Source: a virus
Taxonomy: Duplodnaviria > Caudoviricetes
Reading direction: 5' to 3' (one strand)
Length of the DNA: 64,000 nt
Virus record (IMG/VR): IMGVR_UViG_3300034062_006701
Part shown: positions 11,740-55,047 of the stretch, piece by piece
Position numbering within the stretch: position 1 is the first letter of the stretch
Layout: the number at the start of each line of letters is the position of its first letter
Position numbers and translations under genes: made by a program
The notes under the pieces: model-generated
Database searches by the model: none
The model's input: only the letters and a program-made list of their open reading frames with translations
What the model was told of the DNA's origin: nothing

Positions 11740-12423
11740 ATGCTTGTCTTTGATCCCATACAACACACGTATAAGAACGCATATACCGGTGACAAATATA
11801 CATCTGCGACAACTTTGCTGCATAAGTTCAAGAAACCGTTCGAGGCTGATCTTATTGCTGAAAGGGTAGCGAAGAAAGAAAAAACAACTGTTGAAGAAAT
11901 TAAGTTAAAGTGGAAGAAGAGTAACGATGAGAGTAAAGAGTATGGTACAGCAATACATGCTGCTATTGAACAATACAATAAATTAGGTACATACGATGTA
12001 TCATTTGTTGATGTGGTACAAGCCTATATAGATTTAAATATTATTAATAAAGGGGATGATCTTTTAATAGAGCATCAGGTATATAATCACGAGTATAAGG
12101 TTGCTGGTACAGCAGATATCATACGTGTAGAGGATAAAGGTGGTTTTAGTGTATTTGACATTAAGACAAATAAGAAATTTAATCTTTATAGCCAATACAA
12201 TGATTACCTCTTGACACCTCTCGAACACTTACCCGCCTGTGAGTACTCTATATACGGTTTACAACTCTCTCTCTATGCGTATATGTTTCAAAATATTACA
12301 GGTAGACGAGTTAATCAGCTCGGTGTAATGTATTATGATAGAAATACCTGTAAATTTACATATTATCCTATTAATTATATGAAGCATGAAATTGAAGCTA
12401 TGTTAAAGTGTTGCGGAAAATGA
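11740..12423 (+). CDS. PD-(D/E)XK superfamily nuclease (RecB/Cas4-like exonuclease fold)
   Basis: GTAIHAAIE...VAGTADII...FDIKT...YGLQLSLYAY motifs. Confidence 0.85.
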   Translation: MLVFDPIQHTYKNAYTGDKYTSATTLLHKFKKPFEADLIAERVAKKEKTTVEEIKLKWKKSNDESKEYGTAIHAAIEQYNKLGTYDVSFVDVVQAYIDLNIINKGDDLLIEHQVYNHEYKVAGTADIIRVEDKGGFSVFDIKTNKKFNLYSQYNDYLLTPLEHLPACEYSIYGLQLSLYAYMFQNITGRRVNQLGVMYYDRNTCKFTYYPINYMKHEIEAMLKCCGK

Positions 12424-12899
12424 AATTTATAGATCTTATATTACAAAACAGTCAAATAAAAGAGGCTAAGCTTTACGGTCCGGCTAAAAAAGCAGCAGAT
12501 CGACCAGAAACAGGTATAACTATACAGACCCCGTCTGCGTTTCATGTAATTAAGGATTGTGCTACAATAACTACCAAATATTTACCACACTTTGTATTTG
12601 GTCATTATGCAAATCCGTTTGAAGTATTAAAGGGTAAGTTTATAAAAAATGATATTATAGAGTTTGTAAATGAGGCAAACTCTGATATTGTTCTTTTTCA
12701 ACTACTGATACTCATATTAGATAAAATTAATAAAAACCCCTTGTTTAAACAACCAGTGAACGTTCCGACAGATGTACTTACAACTGCAGTTACCGCAGAT
12801 CCCTATGGTGATTATGAGTCCTATCTACCTATAGCTCAAGCTACTATACAGACTGATACTGTATCATTGCTATGCTCTGCTTTTAACGTGAAGGAATAA
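12420..12899 (+). CDS. Hypothetical protein
   Basis: ATGA-coupled to the nuclease stop. Begins MKFIDLILQNSQIKEA. Confidence 0.55.
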   Translation: MKFIDLILQNSQIKEAKLYGPAKKAADRPETGITIQTPSAFHVIKDCATITTKYLPHFVFGHYANPFEVLKGKFIKNDIIEFVNEANSDIVLFQLLILILDKINKNPLFKQPVNVPTDVLTTAVTADPYGDYESYLPIAQATIQTDTVSLLCSAFNVKE

Positions 12900-12907
12900 A
12901 TAATATT

Positions 12908-13264
12908 GTGAGACTAATTACACCTCTTCTTGAAATACAGAATCAATTAAGAATTTTTCATTGGCAGACATCGAGCTATGCTCAGCATAAAGCGTTCGGG
13001 AAGGCATATGAAAGCTTAGATACTTTAATTGATGACTTTGTAGAGGTCTTTATTGGTAAATACGGTAAAACAAAGGCGAGTATAAAATATAGTATTGAAT
13101 TATCGAATTTTGATGATGGTTATCTTACGGTGATTGATTCATACATCTCATATTTGACCGCATTAACTAGTGAGCTAAAGGATATTGATACAGATTTGCT
13201 TAATATTCGTGACGAAATGCTTGCTACGTTAAATACGCTAAAATATCTGCTTACTCTTAATTAA
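12908..13264 (+). CDS. Ferritin/Dps-like four-helix-bundle protein (DUF5856-like)
   Basis: QLRIFHWQTSSYAQHKAFGKAYESLDTLIDDFVEVFIGKYG resembles the Dps H-W/H/D-E pattern. TAAATA box 5 nt before GTG. Confidence 0.7.
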   Translation: MRLITPLLEIQNQLRIFHWQTSSYAQHKAFGKAYESLDTLIDDFVEVFIGKYGKTKASIKYSIELSNFDDGYLTVIDSYISYLTALTSELKDIDTDLLNIRDEMLATLNTLKYLLTLN

Positions 13265-16200
13265 GCTGTCACGTCGTAACCGAATGTAAAGGTGTTATCT
13301 GCGGCGTTAAAGTAACCTGCTGCAGATCCAAGCGTTGTATACGTTTCGAGATATGGGCTGCCTTGCGGGTTACCAAAAGTAATGTCATATACATCTATAA
13401 CAGGTGTGTGTAAGGTACATGTAATGTTCTGTACTGTGTTATTAACGTATCTAAATCGTGTAGTTACAATGTAGAAGCAATCTGCTGTATCTTTACCGAG
13501 GTATGTAAGGGTATAAAAGCCTGTTTCAGGGCTAAAGTTAAATACTGGCTTTTCAATTTCCACAATATTGAGTTCAATACCTTTACCGTTCAATGAGAAT
13601 ACACTTAAATCGTTGAATACAAGATCTGATACCGCTTTTGCAGGGTATATTTCACTTATTTGCTGGTTATTTAAATTAATTCTGTATATCGTGGGGTATA
13701 CAACCTTATAATTTGAAGCGCTTAAACTATCACGTAATAAAGTTGTCTTACAGAACATAAGAGTGTTGTCACTTTCGTTGAACCACACATTAGAGAACCG
13801 TTCTAAGTCCGGTAATTCACCGCGGTTAAAGTATCTAAATTCATTTACCGATCCGGTAATACTGTTTGTATTATAGTCAAACTGCAGTCTATCGAAAATT
13901 AAATAGTTCTCTGTTTCAAGCTGCAAGACATCGTAGTAAACTTCAAAATTAATGAGCTTGTTGTATATTTCTTCTTTTATGTTCTGTGGATAATTTAATA
14001 GCGCTGCACTTAATGTAGCAGATGCCGGTCCAATGGTTGTACTGTTAGCGTTTCTAAAGTAAAGATCACCGTATTCTACAGCTCTTGTGTAGTAGAGCGG
14101 TTTCTTTGTAGAAACTGTATTAATTGATGTGTCTAACACTGTTTCATGGCCGGTCTGTCTTATATCTTTAAAATTGGACGGCTCTGTGTATGAATGTGTA
14201 TAAGAACCTAATGTACAGGGTTCGCTGTCCAACGAGTCTATATAAAATACATTTCCATCATAATCAAACCCGTTATATGAAAGAGCATCTAAACTAAAGT
14301 CAGGTTGATACGTAAATGTACCAACACCATAAGGTGCGTTAGGCGCGGGTGCACCGTCAGTTAATTCGTTATAATATAGTAAACCGGTATTCGGGTTATA
14401 TGATACAATGTCACTCGGAACATCTGGTAACATACCGTTATTATTCTTTGTAAAGTATAAGCCATCCTTTACTGTACATGTATATGTCGTTGTGACAAAA
14501 TCTTCAAAAAGATCTTCATATAAGAAATTACTCGCGAAATCATATGATGTGATAATAGTAGGATTACCACCATCGGAAAAGCTTGCTGGTTCTGATACAC
14601 TCGTGTTTAATACGACGCCAGAAAATATCTTACCATTTGATGCTGTACCTGCAACAGTATAATTAAAATTATATCCTTGACCGCATAGAGAATCGAAGAA
14701 AGTGTAGCCATCGAAAATATAATTAACTAATGCTCTAGGACGTGAAATATCGGAGACACGGCTCATCTCTGATACGCTCTTATAAAGAGCATATTCATTA
14801 CCGTAGACGTCACCCTTATACTGAAATAGAGTCTTATTCAGAGTTAGTAGATTGCTTTGTCGTAGATCTATTGGGTATTGGCTAATTAATTCTAACGGGT
14901 ATACATCGGGATTGCTCCATAGTGTATCTTGACTACCTGTAAAGAAATCCTGCGAGTCAATATATCGTGAGACACCGAAGTTTGTATGATTTAACGTTTG
15001 TTCACGTGATTGATATGCGCGAAATGTTTGAAAGTACGGATCTGTACTGGCGTCACCAAACTTATATTGGTTTGAATAATCAGTCTTATTAAAATAATTT
15101 TCTTCAAAAAACGTTAAAGGTGATTTGAACTCCAGCTTTGTATTACCAGAAATATTTCCGTACTTAGCGGGATCCGGAAAGTAGTAGACAGTATCTGGTG
15201 ACAGTGCATCGACGTTAACGAATGATGTGAATTTAAAATTAGTAAAATTAGCTAGTCCGATTTTATCAGGTTTAAAGAATAAACCAAGCTCGTACCCGGT
15301 TTTGAGAAATTCTTCACTCGGTACTGCAGCAATAGAGGGGTAACGCTTGTTTAAATAGTTTGCAAACTCTGTATCAGCGGTAAATAGTTGACCGGATGTA
15401 AAGGCTGTTGTTGTATCTGTTACAATATAATAAAAATCTGACCCGATATATTTGGTGATTTCTTGAGATTTGTTTACTAGATTTAAGTTATTTACGTCAC
15501 CGTCATTTACAGTGCTGATGAAGTCACTGTCTTTTAGTAGATTTAACTGAGAAGAGTTTACAAGCGGGTCTATAGTAAAATTACCGTCAAGCTCTATAAG
15601 ATAAAACGGATAGGAAAGAATTGACCGCAGAATGCTCTGATCAAAATTACCGAACAGATATGGATCTACATCATTTTGATTTAAATTAAAATAATCATTT
15701 CTTAACCCGGTATTTGTATCGTAAGCAGAGGCAGGTAACGTCGGACTTAAATCATAATAATCCGCATACGTATCATATAAATCCTCTACATCTATAACGA
15801 TATTATTGCGTACGTCAGCTAGGGATAAATTTAACGTACTGAATAAATCAACAATATCCTGTGCCTGCAGAGCTTTTGTGAGGTTTACATAAATTAAATC
15901 TGCAATACCGGTATTTGATCCCTTTAAGTTAAAACTCAAGGCAGAAGTCTGAACATCATCTCTTAATGTACTGTAATAAATGCAAATATCTTTAATTTTT
16001 TTTGCAAAGAAAGGTACAGCGATTGCAAGGTCTCGGTTATTACTAATGTCGATATTTTTGAGATATCTTTTTTCGTCAGTTGTTGTATAGTTAATGACGA
16101 TGTCATTAATAAGATTTGTGTAATATTTTTGTATCTCTGTTACAGCTTCTTGCTTTGTGATATCCTTTGCAGCATACCAATTTGTAAGATATGATTGATA

Positions 16201-16382: not shown

Positions 16383-19300
16383 CTAGCTGTTATAGGTAAC
16401 ATCAACACCAGAAGTAAATAACCGGAAGCCTTTTGTTAATTCATAGCTAAGAATATTTTGTATTATTCCATCATCCGTACTCCATGTATCATAAGAGCTG
16501 TTCGTCGGTGCGAGAGTTGTAAATACACTATTCCAATCTATTACATTGTCATAATACTCATCGCTATATTTAGAATTGTATTGATAAAAATTGTAATAAT
16601 TTCCTATTTCAGTACCGGATATCGATGCTGGTGCTGTGAGTCCCCAACCCCAACTAGGTGTATATGACGATAGAGGGAGAGGTATTGTTGATTCTGTGAA
16701 GTAGTTTGTATTTACAATAGTATATACGTCAGAGAAGAGTTCTTTTGCTACAATTGGTATACCTGGTACAATATAACTAGAAGTTATATCTAATTTTGCA
16801 CTTAAATTTATACCGTACGTGTCGTTTGGCATTGTTGTACCACGGTTATCGAAATTAAGAGCGTATTTATTTCTTGATCCCCAGAGCTTGCTCTGCTTTA
16901 TGGATAACATGTCTACTATACGTTTTAATTGCGGCGGGTATAGGTAATTATACTCCTCAAAATCAACAGTTAATTCCTTACAGAGTGAAAGAAGTGAGTC
17001 GATATTAACTTTATCAACATCAGCTTTATTGTCGACAAAATTAGCGATTTTTTCGTATACTGTTTTACCTAATTCATATGGCTGCGATGCAGCGTTACCA
17101 ACAATTACACCGAGAAATTTATCAAAAAATACTTCTTTATCGAGAAGTGACTCCTGGTACCGTAGAGAATTATAGTATCCAGACGCGTCCCAGCTCTCGT
17201 TTATTTTTGCAATACCGTATTTACCGCTTGACGGGTATATATTGAATAAATTGGAAGACCCGGTAATGGTTCTCACTGTAGTGACAGGTGCCGCGTATTT
17301 GTTTATCCAACGGTAACCATTCCAGTCTCCAGTGGCTTGAAATTCCTGAAGACCGTCACTGTATTGATTTGGTAGAACCTCAATTGGGGTGGTATAGCTA
17401 CTAAGTACAGGTAGACCTGCTGATGGGAATACGAGATCAGCGACAGTAACATAGGATAACTGAGGCTGAGGTATCGTATTACCATTGATCATGTATAACT
17501 TTCGATCGAAATTATTAATAACCCAAATATTATTAGATGTATCGCAAGTTATACCACCAATACTACAAATATAATTTGTTTTGTTATTACCTACACCCGC
17601 GATATAATCGGTGCGTTCGTTTGTAAACGCGTCAACTTTTGTTATTAATTCCCTGTCATGAGAAACCCATGCATTTTGACTTCCGTCTACTGTAATATTA
17701 CCAATCTGCTGAAATCCGCTTAGAGGGAACCCATTTTGTATATTACCATCTAAATCAAACTTGTATAGGTAGTCATTAAACTCGCCGAATACAGATCCAC
17801 GTACGTTATGGTTTCTAGCAGTTACCCATACGTAGTTATTTCTATCTATACAAACCTCTACTGGGGCAATACCTGCCGGGAATTGTATCTCCTTTTTTGT
17901 TTCAGCAAATATTGTAAAATTGTTGGTACCTTGGTATTTGATTAGGTAATTGAAAATAGGATGTGTATATGTAATCCATATATCGTTATTACGGTCGGTA
18001 TCAATTGATGACGGTAGTATTAAGTTTTCACCAGCAAAGCCTTCGTTATTTAAATAATCGGAACTCAGTGCATAACTAAAGTTAGTGGCGCCTGATGGTG
18101 TTGCTACTGCAGTAACTACATTACGTGTTGAATCTATTTTTATAGCAGATCCGCTCTCGAGCAATGTTACCCAAATATTTTCATCTCTATCAATAACAAT
18201 ACCGTTAGGCGCAGCTGCAGCAGAAATAAGATTCGATCCTGTAGTTCTATAATCAATATCAACAATTTGATTATTGATCAGTGTCGGTACCGCCGAAAGA
18301 TTATATAGACCATTCTCAACCGGGTTACCATATACGTCATATTTAAATATTCTATCATTAACAGCGTCAGCGAACCATGTCTCGTAATCATCTGAGCTCT
18401 TATCGGTGCCGACTGGTGATACAGCTACAGCGAATGCATTTCTATTATCTGCAACAGGAATTACAGATTGATCGTTAATTAATGTGACTGTCTTTGTGTG
18501 TGTAAATTCATTATAATTCACCTCTCGTAATACTCTTATTGCGGAATTATATTGAGGTACTAGGACCCAGCCGAGCAATGAATCCTTTTCATAATGAGGT
18601 GGCTCTATAACAACTACACCAGCCGTCAGAATACAATTTTCTGAAGACTGTGATGAAACAAAATATCCTTTATAGAATGCGCCGAGACTCTGTGGTGATT
18701 GACGGGTGAAGTCTTCGTAAAATTTTACTCCTTCAAGAGGATAATATTGATCACCGCTCAAATATGAAATACCTGTTTCTATATTATAGAACTCCGGTGG
18801 CAAGAGGGGGGGATTTGCTGATGATGAAGAAAGTGGTGGGTAGTTTTTTGTTGTGAACCCATGTTTGTCTTTAAATTTTATTACGTACGGTATTTCCGTC
18901 TCTTGCCATGAAACATTCGGTATTTCAAATTTTGTCGTAGATAGTGTTCCTTCACCGTCTATTCCTGTTGTAGTTATTGAAAGACGGTCTGCTGAATTAA
19001 ACCTAACTTTTAAAGCAGGGAATACAGCAGGTTCTATATTCTGAAAACCTGCTATCGGGTAATCTACGTATTTAAACGTTTGCATTCGTTGTGTATAAGC
19101 ATCGTTAAATTTAGAATTATCAAGTGTTGCGAATATAATAATAGGGTTATTCTCTGTAAGTAGAGCATTCGGTCGTTCATCAGTATACCAAAATTTACCT
19201 GTACCTGTAATACCAACAAATACACTACCGACATCTGATGCATTGCACCGCACTATTTGATTGTCTTGAAGCTTAACGTACATTTCTGTATGTGCAGCTG

Positions 19301-19916
19301 TTAAGCTTTCTATTTCAAGATATTCTGTTTCACCGGTTGGTGTTTTATTCTCACGATAGAATCGACTTAAACTACGTAAATGGTCCCACTTATCAGTAAC
19401 ATCGAGAGGTGTGTAGTTGTAATCACCAGCAGCACCAGATGCGTACAGATTTATCGTATACCCCGTCCCACTCAACGCATTATAATTTTGCCAACTATCA
19501 TACACGTTTACATATAGTGGATCGGATAATCTACCTGCGGGTACATCATATATTAACCCTCTATAATCTTGAAAATTAATTTGTGTTGAAATATAGTCAT
19601 ATATTTGTACAGTACAAGAAAATGTACTATCATATGCGTTACCGTCACTATCAAATATTGTTAGCGTGACAGTATATTGACCTGGCCATTTATATGTATG
19701 TGTTGGTCTTAGATCGGTTGAAAATGTACCGTCACCGAAGTCCCATCTTAAATTTTTGTTTGATATAATTCTTGTACCTGACAGTATATTAGAAGTTGTA
19801 AAATCAGGTATAAAATTGAGAGGTGTAATGTCGAGTGTGTATGCAGATAGGGTACTTGTCCCGTTATAGTCAAGAACTTCAAAATAGACATATGTATCTT
19901 GAATATTGTATGTCAT
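16383..19916 (-). CDS. Baseplate wedge protein (gp7-like position) with PKD domain and beta-propeller
   Basis: PKD motif WDFGDGTFSTDLRPTHTYKWPGQYTVTLTI. Repeated D(R)xxNIW(V/I) blades. TAATG-coupled to gp6. Confidence 0.6.
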   Translation of the reverse strand: MTYNIQDTYVYFEVLDYNGTSTLSAYTLDITPLNFIPDFTTSNILSGTRIISNKNLRWDFGDGTFSTDLRPTHTYKWPGQYTVTLTIFDSDGNAYDSTFSCTVQIYDYISTQINFQDYRGLIYDVPAGRLSDPLYVNVYDSWQNYNALSGTGYTINLYASGAAGDYNYTPLDVTDKWDHLRSLSRFYRENKTPTGETEYLEIESLTAAHTEMYVKLQDNQIVRCNASDVGSVFVGITGTGKFWYTDERPNALLTENNPIIIFATLDNSKFNDAYTQRMQTFKYVDYPIAGFQNIEPAVFPALKVRFNSADRLSITTTGIDGEGTLSTTKFEIPNVSWQETEIPYVIKFKDKHGFTTKNYPPLSSSSANPPLLPPEFYNIETGISYLSGDQYYPLEGVKFYEDFTRQSPQSLGAFYKGYFVSSQSSENCILTAGVVVIEPPHYEKDSLLGWVLVPQYNSAIRVLREVNYNEFTHTKTVTLINDQSVIPVADNRNAFAVAVSPVGTDKSSDDYETWFADAVNDRIFKYDVYGNPVENGLYNLSAVPTLINNQIVDIDYRTTGSNLISAAAAPNGIVIDRDENIWVTLLESGSAIKIDSTRNVVTAVATPSGATNFSYALSSDYLNNEGFAGENLILPSSIDTDRNNDIWITYTHPIFNYLIKYQGTNNFTIFAETKKEIQFPAGIAPVEVCIDRNNYVWVTARNHNVRGSVFGEFNDYLYKFDLDGNIQNGFPLSGFQQIGNITVDGSQNAWVSHDRELITKVDAFTNERTDYIAGVGNNKTNYICSIGGITCDTSNNIWVINNFDRKLYMINGNTIPQPQLSYVTVADLVFPSAGLPVLSSYTTPIEVLPNQYSDGLQEFQATGDWNGYRWINKYAAPVTTVRTITGSSNLFNIYPSSGKYGIAKINESWDASGYYNSLRYQESLLDKEVFFDKFLGVIVGNAASQPYELGKTVYEKIANFVDNKADVDKVNIDSLLSLCKELTVDFEEYNYLYPPQLKRIVDMLSIKQSKLWGSRNKYALNFDNRGTTMPNDTYGINLSAKLDITSSYIVPGIPIVAKELFSDVYTIVNTNYFTESTIPLPLSSYTPSWGWGLTAPASISGTEIGNYYNFYQYNSKYSDEYYDNVIDWNSVFTTLAPTNSSYDTWSTDDGIIQNILSYELTKGFRLFTSGVDVTYNS

Positions 19917-36317: not shown

Positions 36318-36884
36318 TTAGGGTGATGTTCTTGTAAAGTAATGATATGCCATTGTAGCAGTAAACTCAATTGTTTGACCTGTACCAGCAGCCATTGAAT
36401 ATGTAAGAGCACCGACACTACGTGGTGAAACACCGATGAGTGAATACTCTGCAACTCTTTCCATCTTATTATTAAGCTGGAGTAAGTTGATAACGGATGT
36501 CTGCTTAGGCGTGAGGTAATCACCTGTACTGTTTGCATCATCAAACGTGTAGCGTGACCAATCCTCGAATTTCTGTCTGAGCTGTGAATTTGCGTCAGCA
36601 TAGAACGTTAAGCCATATCCTTCAGATCCTGGATACACTGCGTTACCAGGTAGATTGAAGTTAAGACCCATGTAAGGTACTGCAACGTTGGTAATAGCTC
36701 TCTCAGGTAGTGTTGCTGTCTTTGCATACACAAGATCGTCATCACCGAATGTTATAACGTTCCCTGCAGCGTCTGTTGCACCACCTGTACTGATTGAAAG
36801 TACACGAAAGTTAAAATCACGAGCAAATTCACGGTTTGCTGCTACTCTATAAAAATCTTGAATTAATTGATTAGTATCGGCCAT
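36318..36884 (-). CDS. gp19: Tail tube protein gp19
   Basis: AKTATLPERAITNVAVPYMG...LRQKFEDW...YSLIGVSPRSVGALTY. Follows the sheath gene. Confidence 0.9.
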   Translation of the reverse strand: MADTNQLIQDFYRVAANREFARDFNFRVLSISTGGATDAAGNVITFGDDDLVYAKTATLPERAITNVAVPYMGLNFNLPGNAVYPGSEGYGLTFYADANSQLRQKFEDWSRYTFDDANSTGDYLTPKQTSVINLLQLNNKMERVAEYSLIGVSPRSVGALTYSMAAGTGQTIEFTATMAYHYFTRTSP

Positions 36885-39410: not shown

Positions 39411-40031
39411 TTAATTTTCTGTCTCAGTAAGTGGTTGGATCAATAATTGCGAGTAATTTAGTGTGAAACTCGACTCCACTTCACCAGCGTCTCTATATGA
39501 ATAATTAATACCACCTATAGCTGATGGAAACGCATCGGTGTACTTGAACTCTATAACACGTTTATCATATTCATCTAATCCAAATATAGAGATTGTTGAT
39601 TTATATTGATAGAAAGATGAATTTACACCGTTATTTACTGTTGATCTGGTAGGTGTTGTGAGTTGCTTGCTATCATATAAGCCATCTGCGCTGTTATTGA
39701 GCATGTCGAGCCAAGTATATATCACCCAGTAATTATTAAACCGATTATCTACAGTGAAATTTACATTAATAGGGGGATAGGGTTCACGTGAATGACTAGT
39801 GTGACTTAGAGTTTGACCACCGTATCTTGTCTGTATCGCGGGTACAGATACATCGGGAATTACTGTACCGTATACTGAAAATTGTAAAGTGTCAGGTAGT
39901 ATTGTTTCTGCTGTTCTTTCAAATTTAGTAGCGATCTGTCTCAACGCTAACGGTATATTCATTACCATTAGAAACTTGTCTTTTCTCGTCTTATTGAATG
40001 GACTCTGCGTGTATGTAATGTTGTTTCCCAT
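39411..40031 (-). CDS. gp3: Tail tube terminator gp3-like
   Basis: LQFSVYGTVIPDVSVP...INVNFTVDNRFNNYWVIYTWL...FKYTDAFPSAIGGINY. Confidence 0.7.
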   Translation of the reverse strand: MGNNITYTQSPFNKTRKDKFLMVMNIPLALRQIATKFERTAETILPDTLQFSVYGTVIPDVSVPAIQTRYGGQTLSHTSHSREPYPPINVNFTVDNRFNNYWVIYTWLDMLNNSADGLYDSKQLTTPTRSTVNNGVNSSFYQYKSTISIFGLDEYDKRVIEFKYTDAFPSAIGGINYSYRDAGEVESSFTLNYSQLLIQPLTETEN

Positions 40032-40037: not shown

Positions 40038-41759
40038 TTAATTTAGATATGCCCATCCTTGTTGCTGAAGATATGTGAGATCTGTTTGATCTGGCTCGTT
40101 ACCTGTACTAATTAATATAGGCAGTGGAATTGCGTTGTCAGAGTCTCTCTCGTTACTATACATGGATGTAGGGTTAATAAAATATTTAATCCCATAGTCC
40201 ATAGACTTAATAACTTGCGGGCGCTTGTTGTCATCGAGCTCTACGATTTCATAATATTTTTCTGTAACTTCATTCTCTAAAATCATTAATGTCCAAATAA
40301 GACTCATAACCCTATCATCGTGGCTATCACTACCTGACTTTGCAGCCCATGTACCGTTCGGGTATCTTACAAATCCCTTGAGTTCAGCTAATGTTTTTAT
40401 GTCACGTATACGGACAACGTTAAGTTCATTAATCCAATAGCGCATATTAGTCACACCTTTGTATTTGGTGTTTGTATGCGCAACAACCCCAGGCTTGTTA
40501 AAAATTTTATCACCGGCCTTTGAACCGTAATTTACAATATTTTCATATCTTAGGTTATTTTTTAGCTGATCTACAACCTGTGCACCGCAATTATTTCGTT
40601 CAATTAATGCCGGGGGGTTTCCCCAGTGTTGTAGAATTTCATGTAGTTTTGTTGTAAAATTGTATGGGCTAATGTTACGGTTATGGTAAATTGCAACCTG
40701 TTCTATATTACGTAAATCGGTAATATCTAGAACCTGTACGACAGATGCAGCTTCACCGACACCCTCAGCTACATCGACACCAACTACATATAACCGCTCC
40801 TTATCTGGTTCTCTCCATAATAGATAATGTCCTTCATCAAACACAAATGTCGGCTCTGCGCATTCTGCCTTTAACTTTTCGAAGAATGCTTCGTCAATAG
40901 CGCTCTCACCAGTTTGTAGGAAAGTATTGCCAAATTCTTGGTCAAACTTTTCTCTACTACCCATCTCGCGAATGGTTTTATTTTTCCATTTTTCATCTCT
41001 ACCCGGCACCTCCCACCAATCAACACGTTCTGCTTTCCACCCATTATGTTTTTCAGGGTCCTGCTCCATAGCTCCTGAATACAGATCATGAAATAAATTA
41101 CCTGTGCCGTTTGGTGTACTAGCTACAAATATTTTTGATTTTTTAGATGAAGATATAATAGGGTATACAGATGCCCAAAATTCCTCTACTAAATGATTAT
41201 CAATAAAGGCTAGCTCATCAAGTAAAACAACGTTTACAGAATCACCTCTACCTGCATCACTGCTTGTGGTACTGATACCAATACTCGACCCATTTGCTAA
41301 AGACATTGATGTTTTACCATATTCAATGACACCTGGCTTTAAATAGTTCGGTAGTTTTTCATATGCCATTCTAACACGCTTAAAGATATTAATAGCGGTC
41401 GACTCTTTATTTGCCACAATAAGCACGCGTTGATCTTCTTGGAAACAAACGATCCAAAGAGCGTAAATTGTGAAGAGAGTCGTTTTACCACTCTGTCTAC
41501 TTGATAACATACACACAAACCGACTGTCACGTAGTGATCGGAGAATTCTCTTTTGATATAAATGAAGCTGAATCTTTATTTTACCTTGATCGAGATTAGT
41601 AATATAAAAGAAGTTCTCTGCAAAATATAAAATGTTTTTTTTACATTTTTCAATATCCTTAACCCATTCAGGGTTTGCACCATAATCAAACATTGCGTCT
41701 GGTGTCGGTAGACTTTCATTACCTAGATAAAACTGCTGTTTCTCTTTTTTATTAGCCAT
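40038..41759 (-). CDS. gp17: Terminase large subunit gp17
   Basis: SRQSGKTT, Walker B LLDELAF, ASTPNG, nuclease GVDVAEG and HDDRVMS. Start taken as ATG 41759; 41780 is the alternative. Confidence 0.97.
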   Translation of the reverse strand: MANKKEKQQFYLGNESLPTPDAMFDYGANPEWVKDIEKCKKNILYFAENFFYITNLDQGKIKIQLHLYQKRILRSLRDSRFVCMLSSRQSGKTTLFTIYALWIVCFQEDQRVLIVANKESTAINIFKRVRMAYEKLPNYLKPGVIEYGKTSMSLANGSSIGISTTSSDAGRGDSVNVVLLDELAFIDNHLVEEFWASVYPIISSSKKSKIFVASTPNGTGNLFHDLYSGAMEQDPEKHNGWKAERVDWWEVPGRDEKWKNKTIREMGSREKFDQEFGNTFLQTGESAIDEAFFEKLKAECAEPTFVFDEGHYLLWREPDKERLYVVGVDVAEGVGEAASVVQVLDITDLRNIEQVAIYHNRNISPYNFTTKLHEILQHWGNPPALIERNNCGAQVVDQLKNNLRYENIVNYGSKAGDKIFNKPGVVAHTNTKYKGVTNMRYWINELNVVRIRDIKTLAELKGFVRYPNGTWAAKSGSDSHDDRVMSLIWTLMILENEVTEKYYEIVELDDNKRPQVIKSMDYGIKYFINPTSMYSNERDSDNAIPLPILISTGNEPDQTDLTYLQQQGWAYLN

Positions 41760-41763
41760 TTGA

Positions 41764-41771
41764 TATAAATA
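41764..41771 (+). promoter_or_regulatory. T4-type late promoter TATAAATA
   Basis: 11 nt before ATG 41783. Confidence 0.7.
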
Positions 41772-41782
41772 ATTAAGCATTT

Positions 41783-42658
41783 ATGAACAAAACACGCAAT
41801 CTCGTTGAAATGGGTGAATTTTATTCTTCAACCGTACTTACAGAGTCTAAGAAGAACAGCCAGTCTAAATTCCCTGGCAAGGATACATTTACAAAGCCTG
41901 GTAAGACTGTCGATGCAGAAACAGTAAAGACAGGAAAAGCATTTAATGATGCAGGTCCTGTCCGCAACAACAAAGAAGCTCTCGTAAAGGCGCAGGAGCC
42001 TGTTGCCGTGAAAGATAAGGAAACATTTACAGGTGTGGAAAATTTTTCTCAAGTATCTGGAAAAAAATTAAAGGAGAATATAAATACTTTTATGAACAAA
42101 TCTATTTTTGATCGCTTATACGAGGACGTAATGTCCGATAACATTAATTCACCAGCTGATCTCGAACAGGCTGACGCAGAGGCTCTTGAGCTTCCTGGTA
42201 CAGAGGTTGAGGAAGGCGAAGTAACAATCACACTTGATCGCGAGCTCGCAAAGAAGCTTCATGACGTTCTTATGACCGTTCTTGACTCAGAAGAAGAAGC
42301 GCCTGAGACTGAAGAAGAAGGTGCACCTGAAGAGGGTGAAATCTCTGATGAGGCAGCTGAAGATGAGCATGAAGATGAAGAGCATGAAGATGAAGAGCAT
42401 AAGGCAAAGTATGAAGCAACTGAACTCACTGAGCTTCCAGCTAGCAAAGGTCACTCTTTAACAGGTAAGAGCAACAAGGTTCACGGTACAGCTACAAGTC
42501 TTGTATCAAAGGGTGAGGGTGAAGGCAAGGTTAAGGGTGAAATCGATGCAAAGGGCTCTGATCTTAGCGACAGCAAGGGTCATTCCTTAACAAGCAAGAA
42601 CAATAAGGTTACATCAAAGACATCCAAAGTTGGATCATACCTCGCGGGTCTTAAGTAA
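41783..42658 (+). CDS. Acidic late protein, possible prohead core/internal protein
   Basis: Glu-rich middle, Lys/Ser/Gly-rich tail, several (L/I)xE sites. TATAAATA upstream and a strong terminator downstream. Confidence 0.65.
   Translation: MNKTRNLVEMGEFYSSTVLTESKKNSQSKFPGKDTFTKPGKTVDAETVKTGKAFNDAGPVRNNKEALVKAQEPVAVKDKETFTGVENFSQVSGKKLKENINTFMNKSIFDRLYEDVMSDNINSPADLEQADAEALELPGTEVEEGEVTITLDRELAKKLHDVLMTVLDSEEEAPETEEEGAPEEGEISDEAAEDEHEDEEHEDEEHKAKYEATELTELPASKGHSLTGKSNKVHGTATSLVSKGEGEGKVKGEIDAKGSDLSDSKGHSLTSKNNKVTSKTSKVGSYLAGLK
42079..42086 (+). promoter_or_regulatory. Internal T4-type late promoter TATAAATA
   Basis: Lies inside a CDS, 5 nt before an in-frame ATG. Confidence 0.6.
42092..42658 (+). 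CDS. Putative nested in-frame short isoform (MNKSIFDRLYE...)
   Basis: TATAAATA at 42079-42086, then 5 nt, then in-frame ATG 42092 (309 nt from 41783). Confidence 0.55.
   Translation: MNKSIFDRLYEDVMSDNINSPADLEQADAEALELPGTEVEEGEVTITLDRELAKKLHDVLMTVLDSEEEAPETEEEGAPEEGEISDEAAEDEHEDEEHEDEEHKAKYEATELTELPASKGHSLTGKSNKVHGTATSLVSKGEGEGKVKGEIDAKGSDLSDSKGHSLTSKNNKVTSKTSKVGSYLAGLK
42443..42610 (+). repeat. Duplicated SKGHSLTxKxNKV motif
   Basis: Copies start at 42443 and 42572, 129 nt apart. A 15-nt GAAGATGAAGAGCAT tandem also occurs at about 42371-42400. Confidence 0.8.
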
Positions 42659-42684: not shown

Positions 42685-42716
42685 AAAAGGGCCTTAGCAA
42701 TAAGGCCCTTTTTTTT
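42685..42716 (+). terminator. Intrinsic terminator
   Basis: AAAAGGGCCTTA-GCAA-TAAGGCCCTTTT hairpin with GNRA loop, running into a T tract. Confidence 0.9.
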
Positions 42717-42730
42717 GCTTAAATACTTAC

Positions 42731-43111
42731 GTGAATAGTTTCAAAGTTTTTTTTGAGCGTAATAACTTTAACCCGAACATAAACAGTAAGGGTGATTTTG
42801 TAAAATCTAGGCATCTAAATATTACAGGTGTTCCTGATCATAGTCCCACCAGTCGTCAATCAAAGAATGTAGCTAAATTTGTGCCTGATAGTCATCGCAC
42901 TATACATTCCAATAATAAACTCAAAGCATTACTTAACAATGGTAGCACAGCACCGGTGAAGATAACTGACGCTGATGTCCGTCAAATTGAAGCAGAATTT
43001 CCACCGGTTAAATACGATCCAAGCAAACCAAAAAAGCTTGGCAATACAGGTGTAGTTCTAAGATATGATCATGCACTTAATAGCCCTGTAATCGAAAAGC
43101 CTGCCACATAA
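42731..43111 (+). CDS. Hypothetical late protein with capsid-targeting-like leader
   Basis: GTG start, MNSFKVFFE-R. TAAATA 5 nt upstream. TAATG-coupled to gp14. Confidence 0.6.
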   Translation: MNSFKVFFERNNFNPNINSKGDFVKSRHLNITGVPDHSPTSRQSKNVAKFVPDSHRTIHSNNKLKALLNNGSTAPVKITDADVRQIEAEFPPVKYDPSKPKKLGNTGVVLRYDHALNSPVIEKPAT

Positions 43112-45252: not shown

Positions 45253-45627
45253 TTAATCAAGACCGTCTTTTAATACAGTGAATATCTTTTTTAGTTCTGT
45301 GAGTGAATTATTGAGACAGTCAATTACGCTTTTAATCTCGGCAACAGCTTTATCGTCTTCTTTGATGTTCGGGTTATTAAGAGCTGTTTTAAACATGTTT
45401 ACACAGTTACTGTGATTTGTCATTAAATCACCTAGAACGGGAACGACATTAGGCAGTGGGTACGCTAGTAAGTCATCTGCCTTTGAATTGTTAGGGCTCT
45501 GATCAGATATATTACCAAACAGGTCTTTGAATTTCGTGCGCTGAGCGCTAAATTCACGACTTGCTTGTCCGGAAACCCATTTATTATAGTACGATACTGT
45601 ATCCTCAAATAGAACCTTCTTTTTCAT
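45253..45627 (-). CDS. Hypothetical late protein with capsid-targeting-like leader
   Basis: MKKKVLFE-D. TAAATA 7 nt upstream. Confidence 0.6.
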   Translation of the reverse strand: MKKKVLFEDTVSYYNKWVSGQASREFSAQRTKFKDLFGNISDQSPNNSKADDLLAYPLPNVVPVLGDLMTNHSNCVNMFKTALNNPNIKEDDKAVAEIKSVIDCLNNSLTELKKIFTVLKDGLD

Positions 45628-45661
45628 GTGAAATTATTTAATCGCTGCAATAAATACTATT

Positions 45662-46063
45662 ATGAGTTATTTTAAGTCAAGATTCGACTATATTTTAGAG
45701 GCTGACAGTGAAGAAGCGCCGGTGCCTTCAACGGACCGTGAAGCAATGGCTCAGCAACTTGATACAGCGGCTCCTGAAGATCTCGACGTACGGCCTGCCG
45801 AAAGAGCCGCACGAATTGATCACTCAAAATTAGAACAAGCTAATGCTCTTAACGATTGGATTAAACAGATAGATGTGTTTATAAATTTTTTAAACGGTAC
45901 AGACAGCACATCAATACAATCTCAACTACACGCTGCGTCTTGTGATACAATGTTTGAAGATATAGCGAGAAGTGAAAAAAAGAAAATTGCACGTCTTGCT
46001 GCTGAACTTAGCTCGCTTAGTGAGTCTTTCAAAGGTTATCTTATTTCATCAAACGATCGCTGA
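45662..46063 (+). CDS. Hypothetical late protein with capsid-targeting-like leader
   Basis: MSYFKSRFDYILE-A. TAAATA 5 nt upstream. Confidence 0.65.
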   Translation: MSYFKSRFDYILEADSEEAPVPSTDREAMAQQLDTAAPEDLDVRPAERAARIDHSKLEQANALNDWIKQIDVFINFLNGTDSTSIQSQLHAASCDTMFEDIARSEKKKIARLAAELSSLSESFKGYLISSNDR

Positions 46064-47080
46064 TAACATCAGCTTTGCTTTTAACCCGTTGTGTGAGTTT
46101 CTTATAAAGAAATCAGGCGATATTTGGTTAATGTTTGCAGCTATACAAACATCATTTATATCCTTATAAGATTTACCAATTTTTTCCGGCCACATAAATA
46201 CAGTCTCACCGTTATCTATTAATTTTTTAGTTTTCAATTTACTTGCTTTATCCAGCCATTGGCTGTCTAATACCCATATTCTTTTATGGAATTTGAGATT
46301 ATTGATTTGCGATTCCTGAATACCTGAAAACATTTTATCGCTCTTTTCTTGTATACCTGCAACAGCTGTACCGTTTTTCACAAAAAAAGCATCTATCGGA
46401 CCCTCAAATATAAAAATATATTCAAGATCGGCTGTTATTTCATTAATGTTGTAGAGAGACTTGTCACCGTTTATTTTGCTCAAATATTTCGGTGTCTTGT
46501 CTAAATTAGATTTAATAATTGTTCTAGATTGATAGAAGGTAATTTCATCTTCGGTGTTGTAAAACGGTATTACAAGACGATTCTTATGCACTTTATCAGT
46601 TAAAGAAATCCATAATGACCTTGGTCTATTAATAGCGGTATCGAGCTTACGCCGTTGTATTAATTCAATTGCCTCTTTAACTACGTGATTGTCTCTATGG
46701 TATTCCACCTGCATTGGATCAAAGAGATTAATGCAATCAAGAGGTAGCTTGTGCTCATGTTTCTCAGTTATACCTACAGGTTCTTCACGCGAGATATCTA
46801 CAGGTAATACATCATAGGTATTAATTTCATTGAGTATCTCCCTATAAGTCTGACCAGATAACTCCTGTATCCATTTTACCGGGTTACTGTACCAACCACA
46901 ATTGTGACAACAAATTACATTATCTTTCGTTAGATAGTAACATCTACGCTTCTTAAGCCAGGAGTTACCTTCACGACAAATAGGACATGAGCCTTGATAC
47001 GTATGATTATACCCATTGTGCTTTACACCACCTGAGTATGTATAAAACTTCTGTACAACGTATTCTTGAGGTATAGTCAC
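46049..47080 (-). CDS. gp61: DNA primase gp61
   Basis: Zn finger CPIC...CHNCG; RLVIPFY; TOPRIM FEGPIDAF and WVLD. Confidence 0.93.
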   Translation of the reverse strand: MTIPQEYVVQKFYTYSGGVKHNGYNHTYQGSCPICREGNSWLKKRRCYYLTKDNVICCHNCGWYSNPVKWIQELSGQTYREILNEINTYDVLPVDISREEPVGITEKHEHKLPLDCINLFDPMQVEYHRDNHVVKEAIELIQRRKLDTAINRPRSLWISLTDKVHKNRLVIPFYNTEDEITFYQSRTIIKSNLDKTPKYLSKINGDKSLYNINEITADLEYIFIFEGPIDAFFVKNGTAVAGIQEKSDKMFSGIQESQINNLKFHKRIWVLDSQWLDKASKLKTKKLIDNGETVFMWPEKIGKSYKDINDVCIAANINQISPDFFIRNSHNGLKAKLMLSAIV

Positions 47081-47116: not shown

Positions 47117-47118
47117 GT

Positions 47119-50399: not shown

Positions 50400-50427
50400 A
50401 TAATAGGTTGGTTAGTTTAATTTTCAA
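50400..50427 (-). promoter_or_regulatory. Sigma70-like promoter for gp32
   Basis: TTGAAA-16-TATTAT, 11 nt before ATG. Confidence 0.55.
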
Positions 50428-51091: not shown

Positions 51092-51094
51092 TTA

Positions 51095-51418
51095 TTAGAT
51101 GGTAATCTTCTTTTTTGAGGAATTCAAGTATTTCATTACATATTTGCTTTTATATAGACCAGGATCAAACATCGTAAATGCTTGTACAACAGCGAAATCA
51201 CTATTTATATCACAATATATTTTAAATAAATCTCGTAATTCTTTTTTTTGAAGGATAAGTAAAAACACATTTGCTATATTCAATTTTTTTGCGTTTATTA
51301 ATGTAAGAAATGAACAAAATGAGAGGAATAAGTGTTCATACTCATAGTTTATTAATGTGCTGTTTATATTATCAGGCTTCACTAGATAACTAATTATCAG
51401 AAGCCTTATAAAAATCAA
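51095..51418 (-). CDS. Hypothetical protein (start may be GTG 51382)
   Basis: Fills the gap between helicase and the gp59-like gene. Confidence 0.5.
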   Translation of the reverse strand: MIFIRLLIISYLVKPDNINSTLINYEYEHLFLSFCSFLTLINAKKLNIANVFLLILQKKELRDLFKIYCDINSDFAVVQAFTMFDPGLYKSKYVMKYLNSSKKKITI

Positions 51419-51420
51419 TG

Positions 51421-52737
51421 TTATTCACTTGATAGAGAAGCGAGTGCATTAATAGTTGATGCACTCGCTGCAGTATCGTTTATATGCTCATCCTCACTCA
51501 ATGTCAGTGTTGAATAATCTATGCGCATAATGCATTGCCCGAAATTTGGTCCGAACCGATTTTTCATCATCCCCATTTTAATTACACCTAATTCACGGTC
51601 TGTCGGCTCCTGCCATATACTCATAAGGACATCAGCTGTGTGAGCAAGCCCCATACTCTCTGAAATAGTATTCATGCCTGGATCTGATGTACCATACCCG
51701 CTTCGGTTAAGCTGAGTCGCGGAGATGATAGGGCAATTAAAGATATATGTAAGTGACCGTAGTTGTTCGGTTATTTTTTTAACCTTTTCATAACTATTAC
51801 TTTCACCGGGGTAGTGAAGTAGATTGACGTAGTCGAGTACAATCGCGTCAAATTTCATACCCTTATTTCGTAATTTCTTAATATACGATTGAAGAAATCC
51901 GACAGTAATAGATGAAGGCGGAAACTCTTTAATTAAAATTTTAGCCTCAGGATTACCGGAAGCGTACTCTTCAAGAGCGTTCTTTAATGTTGGTACTTCT
52001 GTTTTAATTTTACTGAGAGGTATTTTTGTTATATTTGAGCTTAGTCTCTGCGCATATATCATTTCAGGCATTTCAAGTGAAATAAGTAACACACTCTTTC
52101 CTTGCTTTGCAATATTAATTGCTACATTACCGAGAAAAATACTCTTACCAATATTCGTTTCACCTGTAAACACATACATTGCTCTACCTTCCTGAAGAAA
52201 CCCTCCACCTATTCTTTCATCTAACCACGTCCAGCCTGTTGGGATAAAATTAACTTGTGAATTTAGATTATCGGCAATTGCATCTACTTCGTTAAACAGA
52301 TCTAATCCAACTTCTGTCGTTAGAGAAATATTACAAGCAACTTCAAACTTTTCTAAAACTTGCGTTGTATCCATGTCTGGCTTCTCAACGACTTCAAGCA
52401 TTGTATGATACACAGCTTTTTCCTTTAGAAAAGTTTCTGTATTTTGATACAGCTCATCAGTGTTAATATTTTTATCTATACCCTTAAATCCTTCGACGGT
52501 CCTTTTAAAGGAATCTTTGAGCTCTGTTGTTGTAAGACAGGCCTTTATTTCTGTTAACGTTGGGCATGTATTGCGCCTATTAAAAAAATCTTTTATAATT
52601 TCAAAAACCGGTTTAATGTCCTTATCCTTAAAGTAAGCCGGTTTCACATAATCAACGATAGAAGCAAGATACGTCTCGTCTGTTAGTGCTCTATGCACCA
52701 TGACCTTTTCAAAATAATCGTGATCAATCTTTGACAT
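51421..52737 (-). CDS. gp41: Replicative DNA helicase gp41 (DnaB family)
   Basis: Walker A GETNIGKS, ISLEM, IVLDYVNL, SATQLNRSG, SESMGLAHTAD, KNRFG. Confidence 0.95.
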   Translation of the reverse strand: MSKIDHDYFEKVMVHRALTDETYLASIVDYVKPAYFKDKDIKPVFEIIKDFFNRRNTCPTLTEIKACLTTTELKDSFKRTVEGFKGIDKNINTDELYQNTETFLKEKAVYHTMLEVVEKPDMDTTQVLEKFEVACNISLTTEVGLDLFNEVDAIADNLNSQVNFIPTGWTWLDERIGGGFLQEGRAMYVFTGETNIGKSIFLGNVAINIAKQGKSVLLISLEMPEMIYAQRLSSNITKIPLSKIKTEVPTLKNALEEYASGNPEAKILIKEFPPSSITVGFLQSYIKKLRNKGMKFDAIVLDYVNLLHYPGESNSYEKVKKITEQLRSLTYIFNCPIISATQLNRSGYGTSDPGMNTISESMGLAHTADVLMSIWQEPTDRELGVIKMGMMKNRFGPNFGQCIMRIDYSTLTLSEDEHINDTAASASTINALASLSSE

Positions 52738-52763
52738 TCACTCTATAATATTACCTTATGCTA

Positions 52764-53444
52764 TTAATAGCTAGCATACTCTTGTAAAAACTTTGATTGG
52801 TTTTCAACGAATGTTTTATCATTAATATCTCTCAACCCAGGTGAATTATGGTACGATAAAATCGGTACAACTCCAATCTTAAGTTTTTTCTTATTAGCGT
52901 CTATGCAACTCGAGATATCGTAATGGTGAAATGTATAGTTCTCGTTGAACATCCATTTTACTTCTTTAGTTTTGTTGACGTTAACCGACATAAATGCACC
53001 ATCAATTATTGCAACTCTTGCAGGACTTGGTCCGAAATTTGTTATAGATGTTGTTACACCATCTGGTAGGTAATGACCTGCAAAGCCTCTTAAATTATTA
53101 CCATGAAAGCCTCCGCACATGATATGCCATAGCGCTGGAGCTTTAATAACGGGGTTTAAACCCCCGGCTAAACCAATGATATCGTATTGCTTGTGACCTT
53201 CTTCAAGTTTTGTGAGAAAGCCTGCATCATCAATCCACATATCATCATGGATAAATAGAATTTGTGAGTAGTTCTTAGTAAGAAATTTATTGTACGCCTC
53301 CGATAAGCCTGTTTTATTTTTTGTAACAAATTGCAGTTTATCTAAGAACATTCCACTATTAGACTTCTCGAGTTTAGCGAGGCTTTTATAAAGAAGGGTT
53401 TCCTTATAGTCAGAGTGTTGTGTGCATGAGACAATAGCTATCAT
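52764..53444 (-). CDS. GT-A (family 2-like) glycosyltransferase
   Basis: LSEAYN, FIHDD, IIGLAG, IDGAFM, FHHYDISSC, H-x-S-x-G. Confidence 0.8.
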   Translation of the reverse strand: MIAIVSCTQHSDYKETLLYKSLAKLEKSNSGMFLDKLQFVTKNKTGLSEAYNKFLTKNYSQILFIHDDMWIDDAGFLTKLEEGHKQYDIIGLAGGLNPVIKAPALWHIMCGGFHGNNLRGFAGHYLPDGVTTSITNFGPSPARVAIIDGAFMSVNVNKTKEVKWMFNENYTFHHYDISSCIDANKKKLKIGVVPILSYHNSPGLRDINDKTFVENQSKFLQEYASY

Positions 53445-54127
53445 ATAATAAAAAAGGGTGAATTCTTAATAAAACCGCCAACGGATGTTAATCCTTCCGG
53501 AGTTAACAAATACAATACACCTTCTTCGAGTGGTTCAAGGTTGTTGTCTGGTAGTGAAGAAAAATCATTCGTAAGGAGGTTAGCATATAATGTACTGCCA
53601 GAGCGTGCAATATAAATGTTATGTGATGTTTTACTATATATCCAGAGTCCGAATGTACCTTCAAGCTTCGATAGTGCTGTGCATATTACTTCAACTTCAT
53701 TTCCCGGACACTGTTCTGAATATTTTTCAATTAAAGCAGGTATTACTGATGAGTCCACTTCATTGTATTTTGAAGTATCCTTTATAAGGGCTTTAAGCTT
53801 TAAATCATTAGTCAAAACACCATTATGTGCAACTACCCATTCTCCGCAATAAAATGGATGAGAAGTACTTTCATCAAAGATGCGCTTTGCGCTTGTCGGC
53901 GCCTGGGTGTGTCCGAGATAGAAATAGAAATCTGATGGCTTCATCTGAATATCACTGTTGTTTATAGTCATATTCTTTGACAGCTCGATAGCTCCTTCTT
54001 TCTTTATACATGCATCATACGTGTGGCTAAGAAATAAACCGCCGTATGCGAAGGTACCTCGTTCTCTACCCTTTTGATACAGCTTCGAATATACATTAAA
54101 ATTTGCACTTCCAAAAATTGAACACAT
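53441..54127 (-). CDS. Class II (Ntn) glutamine amidotransferase
   Basis: N-terminal M-C-S-I-F-G nucleophile Cys; LGHTQAPT; HPF; AHNGVLTN; VDSSVI. Confidence 0.88.
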   Translation of the reverse strand: MCSIFGSANFNVYSKLYQKGRERGTFAYGGLFLSHTYDACIKKEGAIELSKNMTINNSDIQMKPSDFYFYLGHTQAPTSAKRIFDESTSHPFYCGEWVVAHNGVLTNDLKLKALIKDTSKYNEVDSSVIPALIEKYSEQCPGNEVEVICTALSKLEGTFGLWIYSKTSHNIYIARSGSTLYANLLTNDFSSLPDNNLEPLEEGVLYLLTPEGLTSVGGFIKNSPFFII

Positions 54128-54168
54128 CTTAATAATATTATACTGTTAAGAATAAATAATTCAAGCAT

Positions 54169-55047
54169 ATGAATACAGACGTTAACCTTATTTTTGAAGC
54201 TTATAGAAATAATATTCTCGGTGAAATGGCCTTACAGGTAAAAGATAAGACAAACGCTGAAAAATCACTTATAGATGCGATTACACACGGCATTGAAACA
54301 AGAACCGGTGATACCTATCTTTTTAAGGGACTACAGGGAGAAGAGTTAAAGCAGAGGGTAGAAGAGTTAGTTGTACCTATCATCAGAGACCTCTTCCAGG
54401 ATGGCGTGTATGCAGGTCGTTCAAGTGGAGATCTTAAAGAGTTAGAATATGATCTTCTCGAGAAGTTAGCGGCTTCAAACCCGAGAGCGAAGTCTCAGTA
54501 TACAGCGAGAATTTTAAGAAGCTTTATCGCTAGCGTCGTTGATGAGGTTGAAGGTTCTGTAGAGCAGGGCGAAACAATAGAAAATGCTTCCGATGATATC
54601 GCAGACGCTGTTGTTGACGGGGCAGAGAAGTCAGACGAAATTGCTCAGTCAGAAGCTCCAAGTGATTCAGAACAAGAACCGGTAGCAGCTCCATCAGACC
54701 GTATTACAACAAGAATTGAAAAACTAATCGCTGATCTCGTTGATGATTCAGGTGTTCTCGAGACAGGTGTCGTTAAGGACGTGGGGCAGCAAATTCTTGA
54801 TAGCGGTGGTCTTGGTCTTCAGGAGGGTCAAATTACCGGTAAGGTTAAAGCTATCGTCAATGACCTCGTTAAAAAGCAGGTATTTGAAAGAAAGGGCCAG
54901 TATTTAAAGCTCGGCAGTAATTTTGAAAAATTCGAGCAAGGTGGTAGTGACTCTTCTGTTTTATCCGATGAAGATTTAATAACTACTGTCACTGGCTACG
55001 GTCAACGACCAACATCAGGTCGCGAGTTCTGGGGTGGACAAGAATAA
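54169..55047 (+). CDS. Acidic late protein with capsid-targeting-like leader and possible C-terminal winged helix
   Basis: MNTDVNLIFE-AY. TAAATA upstream. C-terminal VKAIVNDLVKKQVFERKGQYLKLG resembles a helix plus wing. Confidence 0.65.
   Translation: MNTDVNLIFEAYRNNILGEMALQVKDKTNAEKSLIDAITHGIETRTGDTYLFKGLQGEELKQRVEELVVPIIRDLFQDGVYAGRSSGDLKELEYDLLEKLAASNPRAKSQYTARILRSFIASVVDEVEGSVEQGETIENASDDIADAVVDGAEKSDEIAQSEAPSDSEQEPVAAPSDRITTRIEKLIADLVDDSGVLETGVVKDVGQQILDSGGLGLQEGQITGKVKAIVNDLVKKQVFERKGQYLKLGSNFEKFEQGGSDSSVLSDEDLITTVTGYGQRPTSGREFWGGQE

Follow-up and report, generated by a model that had tools for sequence, protein, structure and literature searches.

The 64,000-nucleotide (nt) stretch of IMG/VR virus record IMGVR_UViG_3300034062_006701 (hereafter the window) carries a scattered set of genes whose products begin with a short leader ending in hydrophobic-x-Glu. 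A first-pass annotation had picked out eight such open reading frames (ORFs) as otherwise unrelated late genes with a leader like the T4 capsid-targeting sequence (CTS). The window comes from a T4-like myovirus that is very divergent and whose occurrences were found only in freshwater metagenomes: a near-identity DNA search of GenBank phages gave no match to it, and its TerL shares just 37–40% identity with the TerLs of Sinorhizobium and Agrobacterium T4-like phages. Assignments made with PHROG and Pfam cover structural and packaging genes (tail fiber, baseplate wedge and hub, sheath, tube, TerL and a gp14-like neck protein) and replication genes (primase, gp32, helicase, clamp loader, DNA polymerase and SbcC); the head module lies outside the window. 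Proteins identical to those of the window were found on contigs of up to ~221 kb. A Joint Genome Institute (JGI) contig is 100% identical to the window and is overlapped over 11.6 kb, again at 100% identity, by a 221.6-kb ENA contig; the source genome would appear to be that of an uncultured freshwater T4-like phage of roughly 220 kb.

All eight ORFs were recovered with the N-termini that had been quoted for them. They are listed below as read from the sequence (lengths in amino acids, aa), and each is named in what follows by the position of its start codon.

22344 to 22950, plus strand: late box (22344–22349), leader MKKRFLKLYE (22357–22386) and a 197-aa basic protein.
41766 to 42658, plus strand: late box (41766–41771), leader MNKTRNLVE (41783–41809) and a 291-aa acidic, mostly low-complexity protein with a second site, LTE, ending at residue 21.
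42079 to 42658, plus strand: putative nested isoform of 188 aa, with an internal TATAAATA (box 42079–42086), an in-frame ATG at 42092 and leader MNKSIFDRLYE.
42720 to 43111, plus strand: late box (42720–42725), GTG start, leader (M)NSFKVFFE and a 126-aa basic protein.
45253 to 45640, minus strand: late box (45635–45640), leader MKKKVLFE (45604–45627) and a 124-aa protein.
45651 to 46063, plus strand: late box (45651–45656), leader MSYFKSRFDYILE (45662–45700) followed by AD, a Pro/Ala/Glu linker and a helical C-terminal domain; 133 aa.
54153 to 55047, plus strand: late box (54153–54158), leader MNTDVNLIFE (54169–54198) followed by AY; a 292-aa acidic protein.
12420 to 12899, plus strand: 159-aa ORF beginning MKFIDLILQNSQIKE; no TAAATA box, and membership unsupported.

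A TAAATA box had been claimed for all but 12420, in agreement with what was found: seven starts carry it 5–11 nt upstream, in the T4-like form [TA]TAAATA and placed as it is for the structural genes, and from these predicted boxes the seven would be late-expressed genes. Throughout the window, late boxes lie 5–7 nt and TATAAT-like early boxes ~6–9 nt upstream of start codons, and Shine-Dalgarno sequences are absent; this spacing, together with the missing Shine-Dalgarno sequences, predicts nearly leaderless mRNAs for both the late and the early class. Several of the genes had been described as antisense to neighboring replication genes. The candidates that sit among minus-strand neighbors do lie on the opposite strand, and the sole overlaps are of 3′ ends, by 4–15 nt. 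ORF 12420, proposed as a weaker member, was excluded: besides lacking a late box it starts within the end of the exonuclease gene, and its first 50 residues are uniformly conserved with no leader-specific pattern.

The description of these genes as unrelated orphans holds. Profile searches of Pfam and PHROG gave zero matches for any of the eight, and those against PDB sequences gave no match; no similarity to T4 IPI, IPII, IPIII or Alt was detected with PHROG, Pfam or PDB sequences. Among 27 leader-bearing proteins of the source genome and its relatives, BLAST detected no similarity between cargo parts except in orthologous pairs. The leaders themselves fall into at least three dissimilar styles, their Leu and Glu codons vary from gene to gene, and a search for a nucleotide-level motif common to them showed none.

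The frequency of the leader motif was compared between late and other genes. The window has 63 called genes, of which 22 were classed as late (TAAATA 2–16 nt before the start) and 41 as other; the motif was scored with its Glu at residues 7–14, and the null expectation was obtained by shuffling each protein's own first 20 residues. Hydrophobic-x-Glu was present in 11/22 late-box genes, where 3.2 were expected (P<0.0005), and in 5/41 of the other genes, where 4.5 were expected (Fisher p = 0.0016 for late versus other). The narrower [LI]-x-E was carried by 10/22 late-box genes and by 3/41 of the others (p = 0.0007), so that the outcome which the first-pass annotation had named as fatal to its proposal, equal frequency on non-late genes, was not observed. 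The comparison was repeated on three related IMG/VR contigs, using only those gene families without a homologue in the window; among these, [LI]-x-E was found in 12/44 late genes (3.9 expected) versus 14/119 others (11.7 expected). For the window and this replication set combined the counts were 22/66 and 17/160 (p = 8e-5); the linkage of leader and TAAATA that had been suggested as a check is thus seen across both.

The motif position peaks at residues 6–15, in late genes only. When all 20 residues were scanned at the last position of the tripeptide (P1), Glu alone was enriched (22 observed, 5.5 expected, z = 7.7), and Asp (6 observed, 5.0 expected) and Gln (6 observed, 4.7 expected) were not; at the first position (P3), enrichment was confined to Ile and Leu, with 11 each against 2.4–3.3 expected. 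L/I-X-E is the cleavage motif of T4 gp21, for which replacement of the Glu by Asp blocks processing (PMC9026906). The enrichment, free of prior assumption, yielded [LI]-x-E, a consensus equal to the T4 gp21 motif, and the existence of a real class of leaders specific to late genes, with this consensus, is indirectly but strongly supported by sequence. P3 is Leu or Ile at six of the seven late-box starts and Phe at the seventh, 42731.

Conservation sharpened the difference between the two groups. With the added filter that the P3 residue and the Glu be kept in orthologues, 6/17 late genes and 1/36 non-late genes retained the motif (p = 0.003), and both residues were kept by every orthologue of 22357, 41783, 45627, 45662 and 54169. 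Inside four of the leaders the codons vary synonymously, which argues for selection at the protein level. The hits at 12908, 21784, 31086, 16383, 44371 and 52764 were dropped as chance occurrences, since their Glu is not conserved in relatives; the ISE of the tail sheath was likewise dropped as a leader, being a conserved N-terminal feature of the sheath.

A gp21-type protease is encoded by the same genome. On the 221.6-kb contig, joined to the window via the overlaps described above, a head module lies ~33 kb past the window end in the order gp15, Portal_T4, gp13, Peptidase_S77, a 189-aa protein, a scaffold-like protein and Gp23. The Peptidase_S77 protein (PF03420; 222 aa) begins MSLRLLVE followed by T, and its LLVE, ending at residue 8, is invariant in 80 metagenomic relatives; the 189-aa protein that follows begins MKTNNINE and then A, and the scaffold-like protein (293 aa) has some twenty hydrophobic-x-Glu sites. 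In the related contig G001 a Peptidase_S77 gene (E = 1.2e-34) also lies within a T4-like head module. The capsid protein is conserved through a stretch ending CFE (LNE, INE, VNE or LRE in distant members) and is hypervariable right after it, which fits the boundary expected of a propeptide. Two features of this module are recorded as side observations: gp13 adjoins the portal gene, not the gp14-like gene (window 43111), and a 324-aa Cys/His-rich protein and a TnsA-like endonuclease (PF08722) are encoded between gp13 and the prohead protease (L139:15453-16872).

T4 itself (NC_000866) served as a control. The motif ends at the residue given for gp67 (LIE-6), gp68 (IPE-6), gp21 (LIE-9), gp22 (IAE-9), gp24 (LRE-10), Alt (ITE-6) and Inh (IAE-9), and in gp23 it is LTE-65; IPII has a ten-residue leader ending IAE-10 (based on a 100% match of the N-terminal query to T4 records). 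All T4 prohead-core and internal proteins that were checked carry an [LI]xE ending at residue 4–10.

Leaders of this kind extend beyond the window. The 38 kb that follow it contain more late ORFs, with starts MKFLDRINAQIQLLE (then AD), MQCLFERYFIE, MMKFDRLMFE (then S) and MVSEFDNLARVALNE (then A). In the relative G001 (L035/L024), positions 17339–21798 hold six small, divergently arranged late ORFs with low-complexity bodies and the leader style M-x-x-D/E-Y-x-x-I/L-x-E-A/S-Y, a cluster resembling, in its sequence features, an internal-protein locus.

The candidates differ in their rate of change. Candidates 22357, 41783, 45627 and 45662 are present and syntenic in every relative examined, at 50–73% identity. 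In 22357 the pattern F-x-x-[LI]-[YF]-E-[SA] is retained in ~115 homologues, with a leader that varies synonymously. An AlphaFold2 model of this protein (predicted local distance difference test, pLDDT, 69) combines a small beta-barrel with a conserved tail that is long and extended; fold searches with the model gave no match at E≤0.001 and merely weak resemblances to small beta-barrels, and a feature search gave only weak matches to unnamed entries. A proposal from its size and neighbors that 22357 is the T4 baseplate protein gp53 was set aside, as no T4 baseplate chain was among the top rows of a Foldseek search of the PDB. All 10 orthologues of 45627 have LFE, VFE or INE, with synonymous variation, and here conservation runs on beyond the leader Glu. 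The alignment of 45662 has M1, F4, F8, L12, E13, A14 and D15 invariant, then an indel-rich linker and then a conserved domain; its leader varies synonymously among relatives, and a terminator-like site (46059–46073) lies at the end of the gene. When the S77 protease was modeled together with the leader region of 45662, the score fell below the mark, which is evidence neither way.

Candidate 41783 encodes an acidic, low-complexity protein in which several short, conserved motifs end in Glu and for which a tblastn search against GenBank phages gave no match. It is divergent from TerL (minus strand, start 41780), with a gap of 2 nt, and within the region 41740–41830 the upstream signal of each gene lies within the first codons of the other; across 11 relatives this region shows no nucleotide variation. 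Because the 41783 leader overlaps the region upstream of TerL, which is probably the cause of the invariance, its conservation is ambiguous. The start at 42092 is an in-frame internal ATG of ORF 41783–42658, preceded at 5 nt by a perfect TATAAATA that falls within the codons for ENINTF, and box, start and leader are retained in relatives, the distant L017–L021 included. From these features ORF 41783–42658 would be a gene within a gene, giving a predicted 188-aa isoform with its own leader. A strong bidirectional intrinsic terminator (42685–42712; a 12-bp stem flanked on each side by T runs) lies between 41783 and 42731, with the late box of 42731 directly after it, an arrangement retained in relatives.

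Candidates 54169 and 42731 change at the pace of tail fibers. Overall identity of 54169 to its relatives is 29–33%, the lowest in the window, and yet M-N-x-D-x-x-L-I-F-E-[AQ]-Y is nearly invariant across ~100 homologues. Its AlphaFold2 model (pLDDT 67) has two winged-helix-like domains with an acidic disordered linker between them; fold searches with the model gave nothing at E≤0.001 and weak winged-helix-like resemblances only. The gene is placed on the opposite strand inside a 7-deazaguanine gene cluster. Candidate 42731 starts with GTG, not ATG, encodes a protein with an isoelectric point of 9.9 and lies directly upstream of the gp14-like neck gene; at this locus in 11 relatives most products begin M-[KN]-S-F-K-x-[FY]-x-x-E, and tblastn at 1e-5 detected only one relative. 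Among the candidates, arms-race speed of the cargo is confined, on these comparisons, to 54169 and 42731, and their fast evolution makes them the best candidates for injected effectors. As a separate observation, the 7-deazaguanine genes around 54169 (52764–56882) encode QueC, a class-II amidotransferase and Glyco_tranf_2_5, and past the window end are genes for GTP cyclohydrolase I, PTPS (QueD-like), a radical-SAM-like Fer4_12 protein and QueF (L135/L137/L138/L139); the presence of this pathway near 54169 and beyond suggests a modified guanine in the phage DNA.

We consider it about 60% probable that the leaders are T4-style propeptides or capsid-targeting leaders, judging from their sequence and from the T4 analogy, and by that analogy some seven unrelated late proteins are probably loaded into the capsid as T4 internal proteins are. 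Under this interpretation, at least six or seven late genes would be single-gene units, each with a TAAATA late box, a near-leaderless mRNA, an ORF and often a terminator, whose products start with a propeptide of 8–13 residues with Leu/Ile-x-Glu at its end. If events follow those in T4, the nascent protein would be docked by its propeptide on the scaffolding core during prohead assembly, the gp21-type Peptidase_S77 protease would then cleave after the Glu, and the mature protein would either be kept in the head with the DNA (internal or ejected) or be degraded and expelled (core protein). The steps from docking to ejection are known from T4 and other phages (PMC3012670, PMC9026906, PMC5694885), and core binding, cleavage, packaging and ejection of the present candidates we infer from those systems. 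The roles of the cargos are expected to be mixed, and any anti-defense activity would be speculation. Of the leader family that the first-pass annotation had advanced, the late-gene class and its leader ending were borne out, and 12420 was not.

Several results weigh against the propeptide interpretation. About 3 of the 11 window hits are expected by chance, and a conserved hydrophobic-x-Glu also occurs near the N-termini of the tail sheath and the helicase for unrelated reasons. Sequence similarity between the leaders and the T4 CTS stops at the cleavage tripeptide. No known internal protein was found to be homologous to any cargo (Pfam and PHROG; tblastn for 41783), and most candidates are acidic, in contrast to the T4 internal proteins, which are described as basic (PMC9026906). 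For individual members, the leader DNA of 41783 is invariant, so that constraint on the DNA could account for its conservation, and 42731 has Phe instead of Leu or Ile at P3 and has lost the Glu in two relatives (G003 and L012).

An alternative that departs from the preferred explanation in the fate of the cargo alone is that real gp21-type propeptides stand on parts of the prohead core, scaffold accessories or regulators of the protease (like T4 gp67, gp68 and Inh), which are consumed in head maturation and not injected. We think this unlikely for the set as a whole, and give it more weight than the other alternatives. The conserved and syntenic 45627, 45662, 22357 and 41783/42092 are, by reason of that conservation, as likely to be prohead-core or assembly parts; 41783, with its multiple Glu-ending motifs in an acidic, low-complexity chain, resembles a scaffold that is cut into pieces, T4 core proteins carry N-terminal sites of the same type, and directly after the protease the head module has a 189-aa protein with just such a site (MKTNNINE|A). 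Placement argues the other way: T4 core genes are inside the head module, and the candidate genes lie 30–75 kb away from theirs. The tail-fiber-like speed of 54169 and 42731 would be unusual in assembly parts, and the domains predicted for 54169 are winged-helix-like, not scaffold-like coiled coils.

We give little credence to a further alternative, in which the N-terminal peptides serve some other late-stage role (cleavage by another protease; docking to a chaperone, tail or membrane assembly; a stability signal) and their likeness to gp21 sites is coincidental. The division of the leaders into several dissimilar families would suit such roles, as would the conservation of residues (LIFEAY, F-x-x-L-x-E) beyond the needs of a cleavage site; but a targeting sequence needs extra residues as well, positions 4 and 7 of the T4 CTS directing targeting (PMC9026906), the specificity for Glu alone and for Ile/Leu alone matches gp21, and no other known system predicts such a motif at such a position in late genes only. 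Chance, or nucleotide-level constraint from promoters, leaderless-mRNA translation starts or overlapping signals with no protein signal at all, is very improbable, being largely refuted for the class and surviving only for 41783, whose DNA-invariant leader falls within TerL's upstream region: so loose a tripeptide occurs often (~3/22 late and 4–5/41 other genes are expected to have it), but the shuffle result (P<0.0005) was replicated in independent families, residue specificity at P1 and P3 is strict, synonymous variation is free in four leaders, and the Leu and Glu codons differ between genes.

If the leaders are propeptides, the closest known counterparts are T4 IPI, IPII and IPIII with their CTS. 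In both sets late proteins begin with a peptide of some 10 residues that ends in Ile/Leu-x-Glu, both have divergent, unrelated cargos with only the leader in common (PMC3012670, PMC9026906), some of them fast-evolving, and both have a gp21-type protease in the same genome. The candidates differ in lacking sequence similarity to the T4 CTS or its cargos, in having at least three dissimilar leader styles where T4 has one, and in occurring one at a time at scattered sites, on the strand opposite to the surrounding replication and DNA-modification genes. Their cargos are mostly acidic and larger (124–292 aa), and within one of them a second, nested start carries a leader of its own; all are known from genes alone. 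The likeness to T4 gp67, gp68, gp22, Inh, Alt, gp24 and gp21 lies in the [LI]xE, which in all of these T4 proteins ends at residue 4–10; the start of T4 gp21, MNEPQLLIE|T, is also like that of the S77 protease here, MSLRLLVE|T, and the acidic, multi-site 41783 resembles a core protein cut into fragments. The T4 prohead-core and minor head genes are in or beside the head module, unlike the distant candidates, which have no homology to them.

In phage P1, the N-terminal signal of the anti-restriction protein DarB likewise suffices to load a protein, even a foreign one, into the head (PMC9024508), and the capsid protein is cleaved after Glu (E120|S121; PMC9024508). The Dar system differs in having its signal within the first 30 residues and stepwise loading via other Dar proteins (PMC9024508), and no short L/I-x-E leader family has been described for it. 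A further precedent is set by the ejection proteins of the giant phages phiKZ and SPN3US. These phages load many head proteins that are trimmed after Glu by a diverged gp21 homologue, and have paralogues with identical N-termini and a diverged remainder (PMC5694885); their propeptides are mostly >100 residues with the motif S/A/G-x-E, in contrast to the L/I-x-E leaders found here, which are short like those of T4.

A literature search found no description of such a leader census in uncultured T4-like phages. Since the CTS, internal proteins and gp21 processing are already established, the advance lies in extending the concept and in its scale, and no new kind of system is involved. If the propeptide interpretation is true, sequence alone would suffice to list, by a simple rule, the proteins that uncultured T4-like phages package and possibly inject (a late box and an N-terminal [LI]-x-Glu at residues 7–14, conserved in relatives); 54169 and 42731 would be flagged as host-takeover or counter-defense candidates in a widespread lake phage clade, and the many natural leader variants would be of use in working out recognition by the prohead core. 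It is possible, if doubtful, that this abundant freshwater T4-like clade loads a larger and more modular cargo than T4, of at least twenty unrelated proteins per genome in several leader families. Were that so, the leader families could set copy number, head position or ejection order, new cargos could be recruited by gaining a late box and a leader, and the leaders would form a natural library for reading the capsid-targeting recognition code.

Two further observations were made outside these loci. Two proteins of the Phage_TTP_2 tube family are encoded on either side of the sheath gene (39411–40031 and 36318–36884), and the second may be a tube initiator or a cap paralogue. At 14–24 kb past the window end (L138:6976-16956) lie about ten co-oriented glycosyltransferase and methyltransferase genes.

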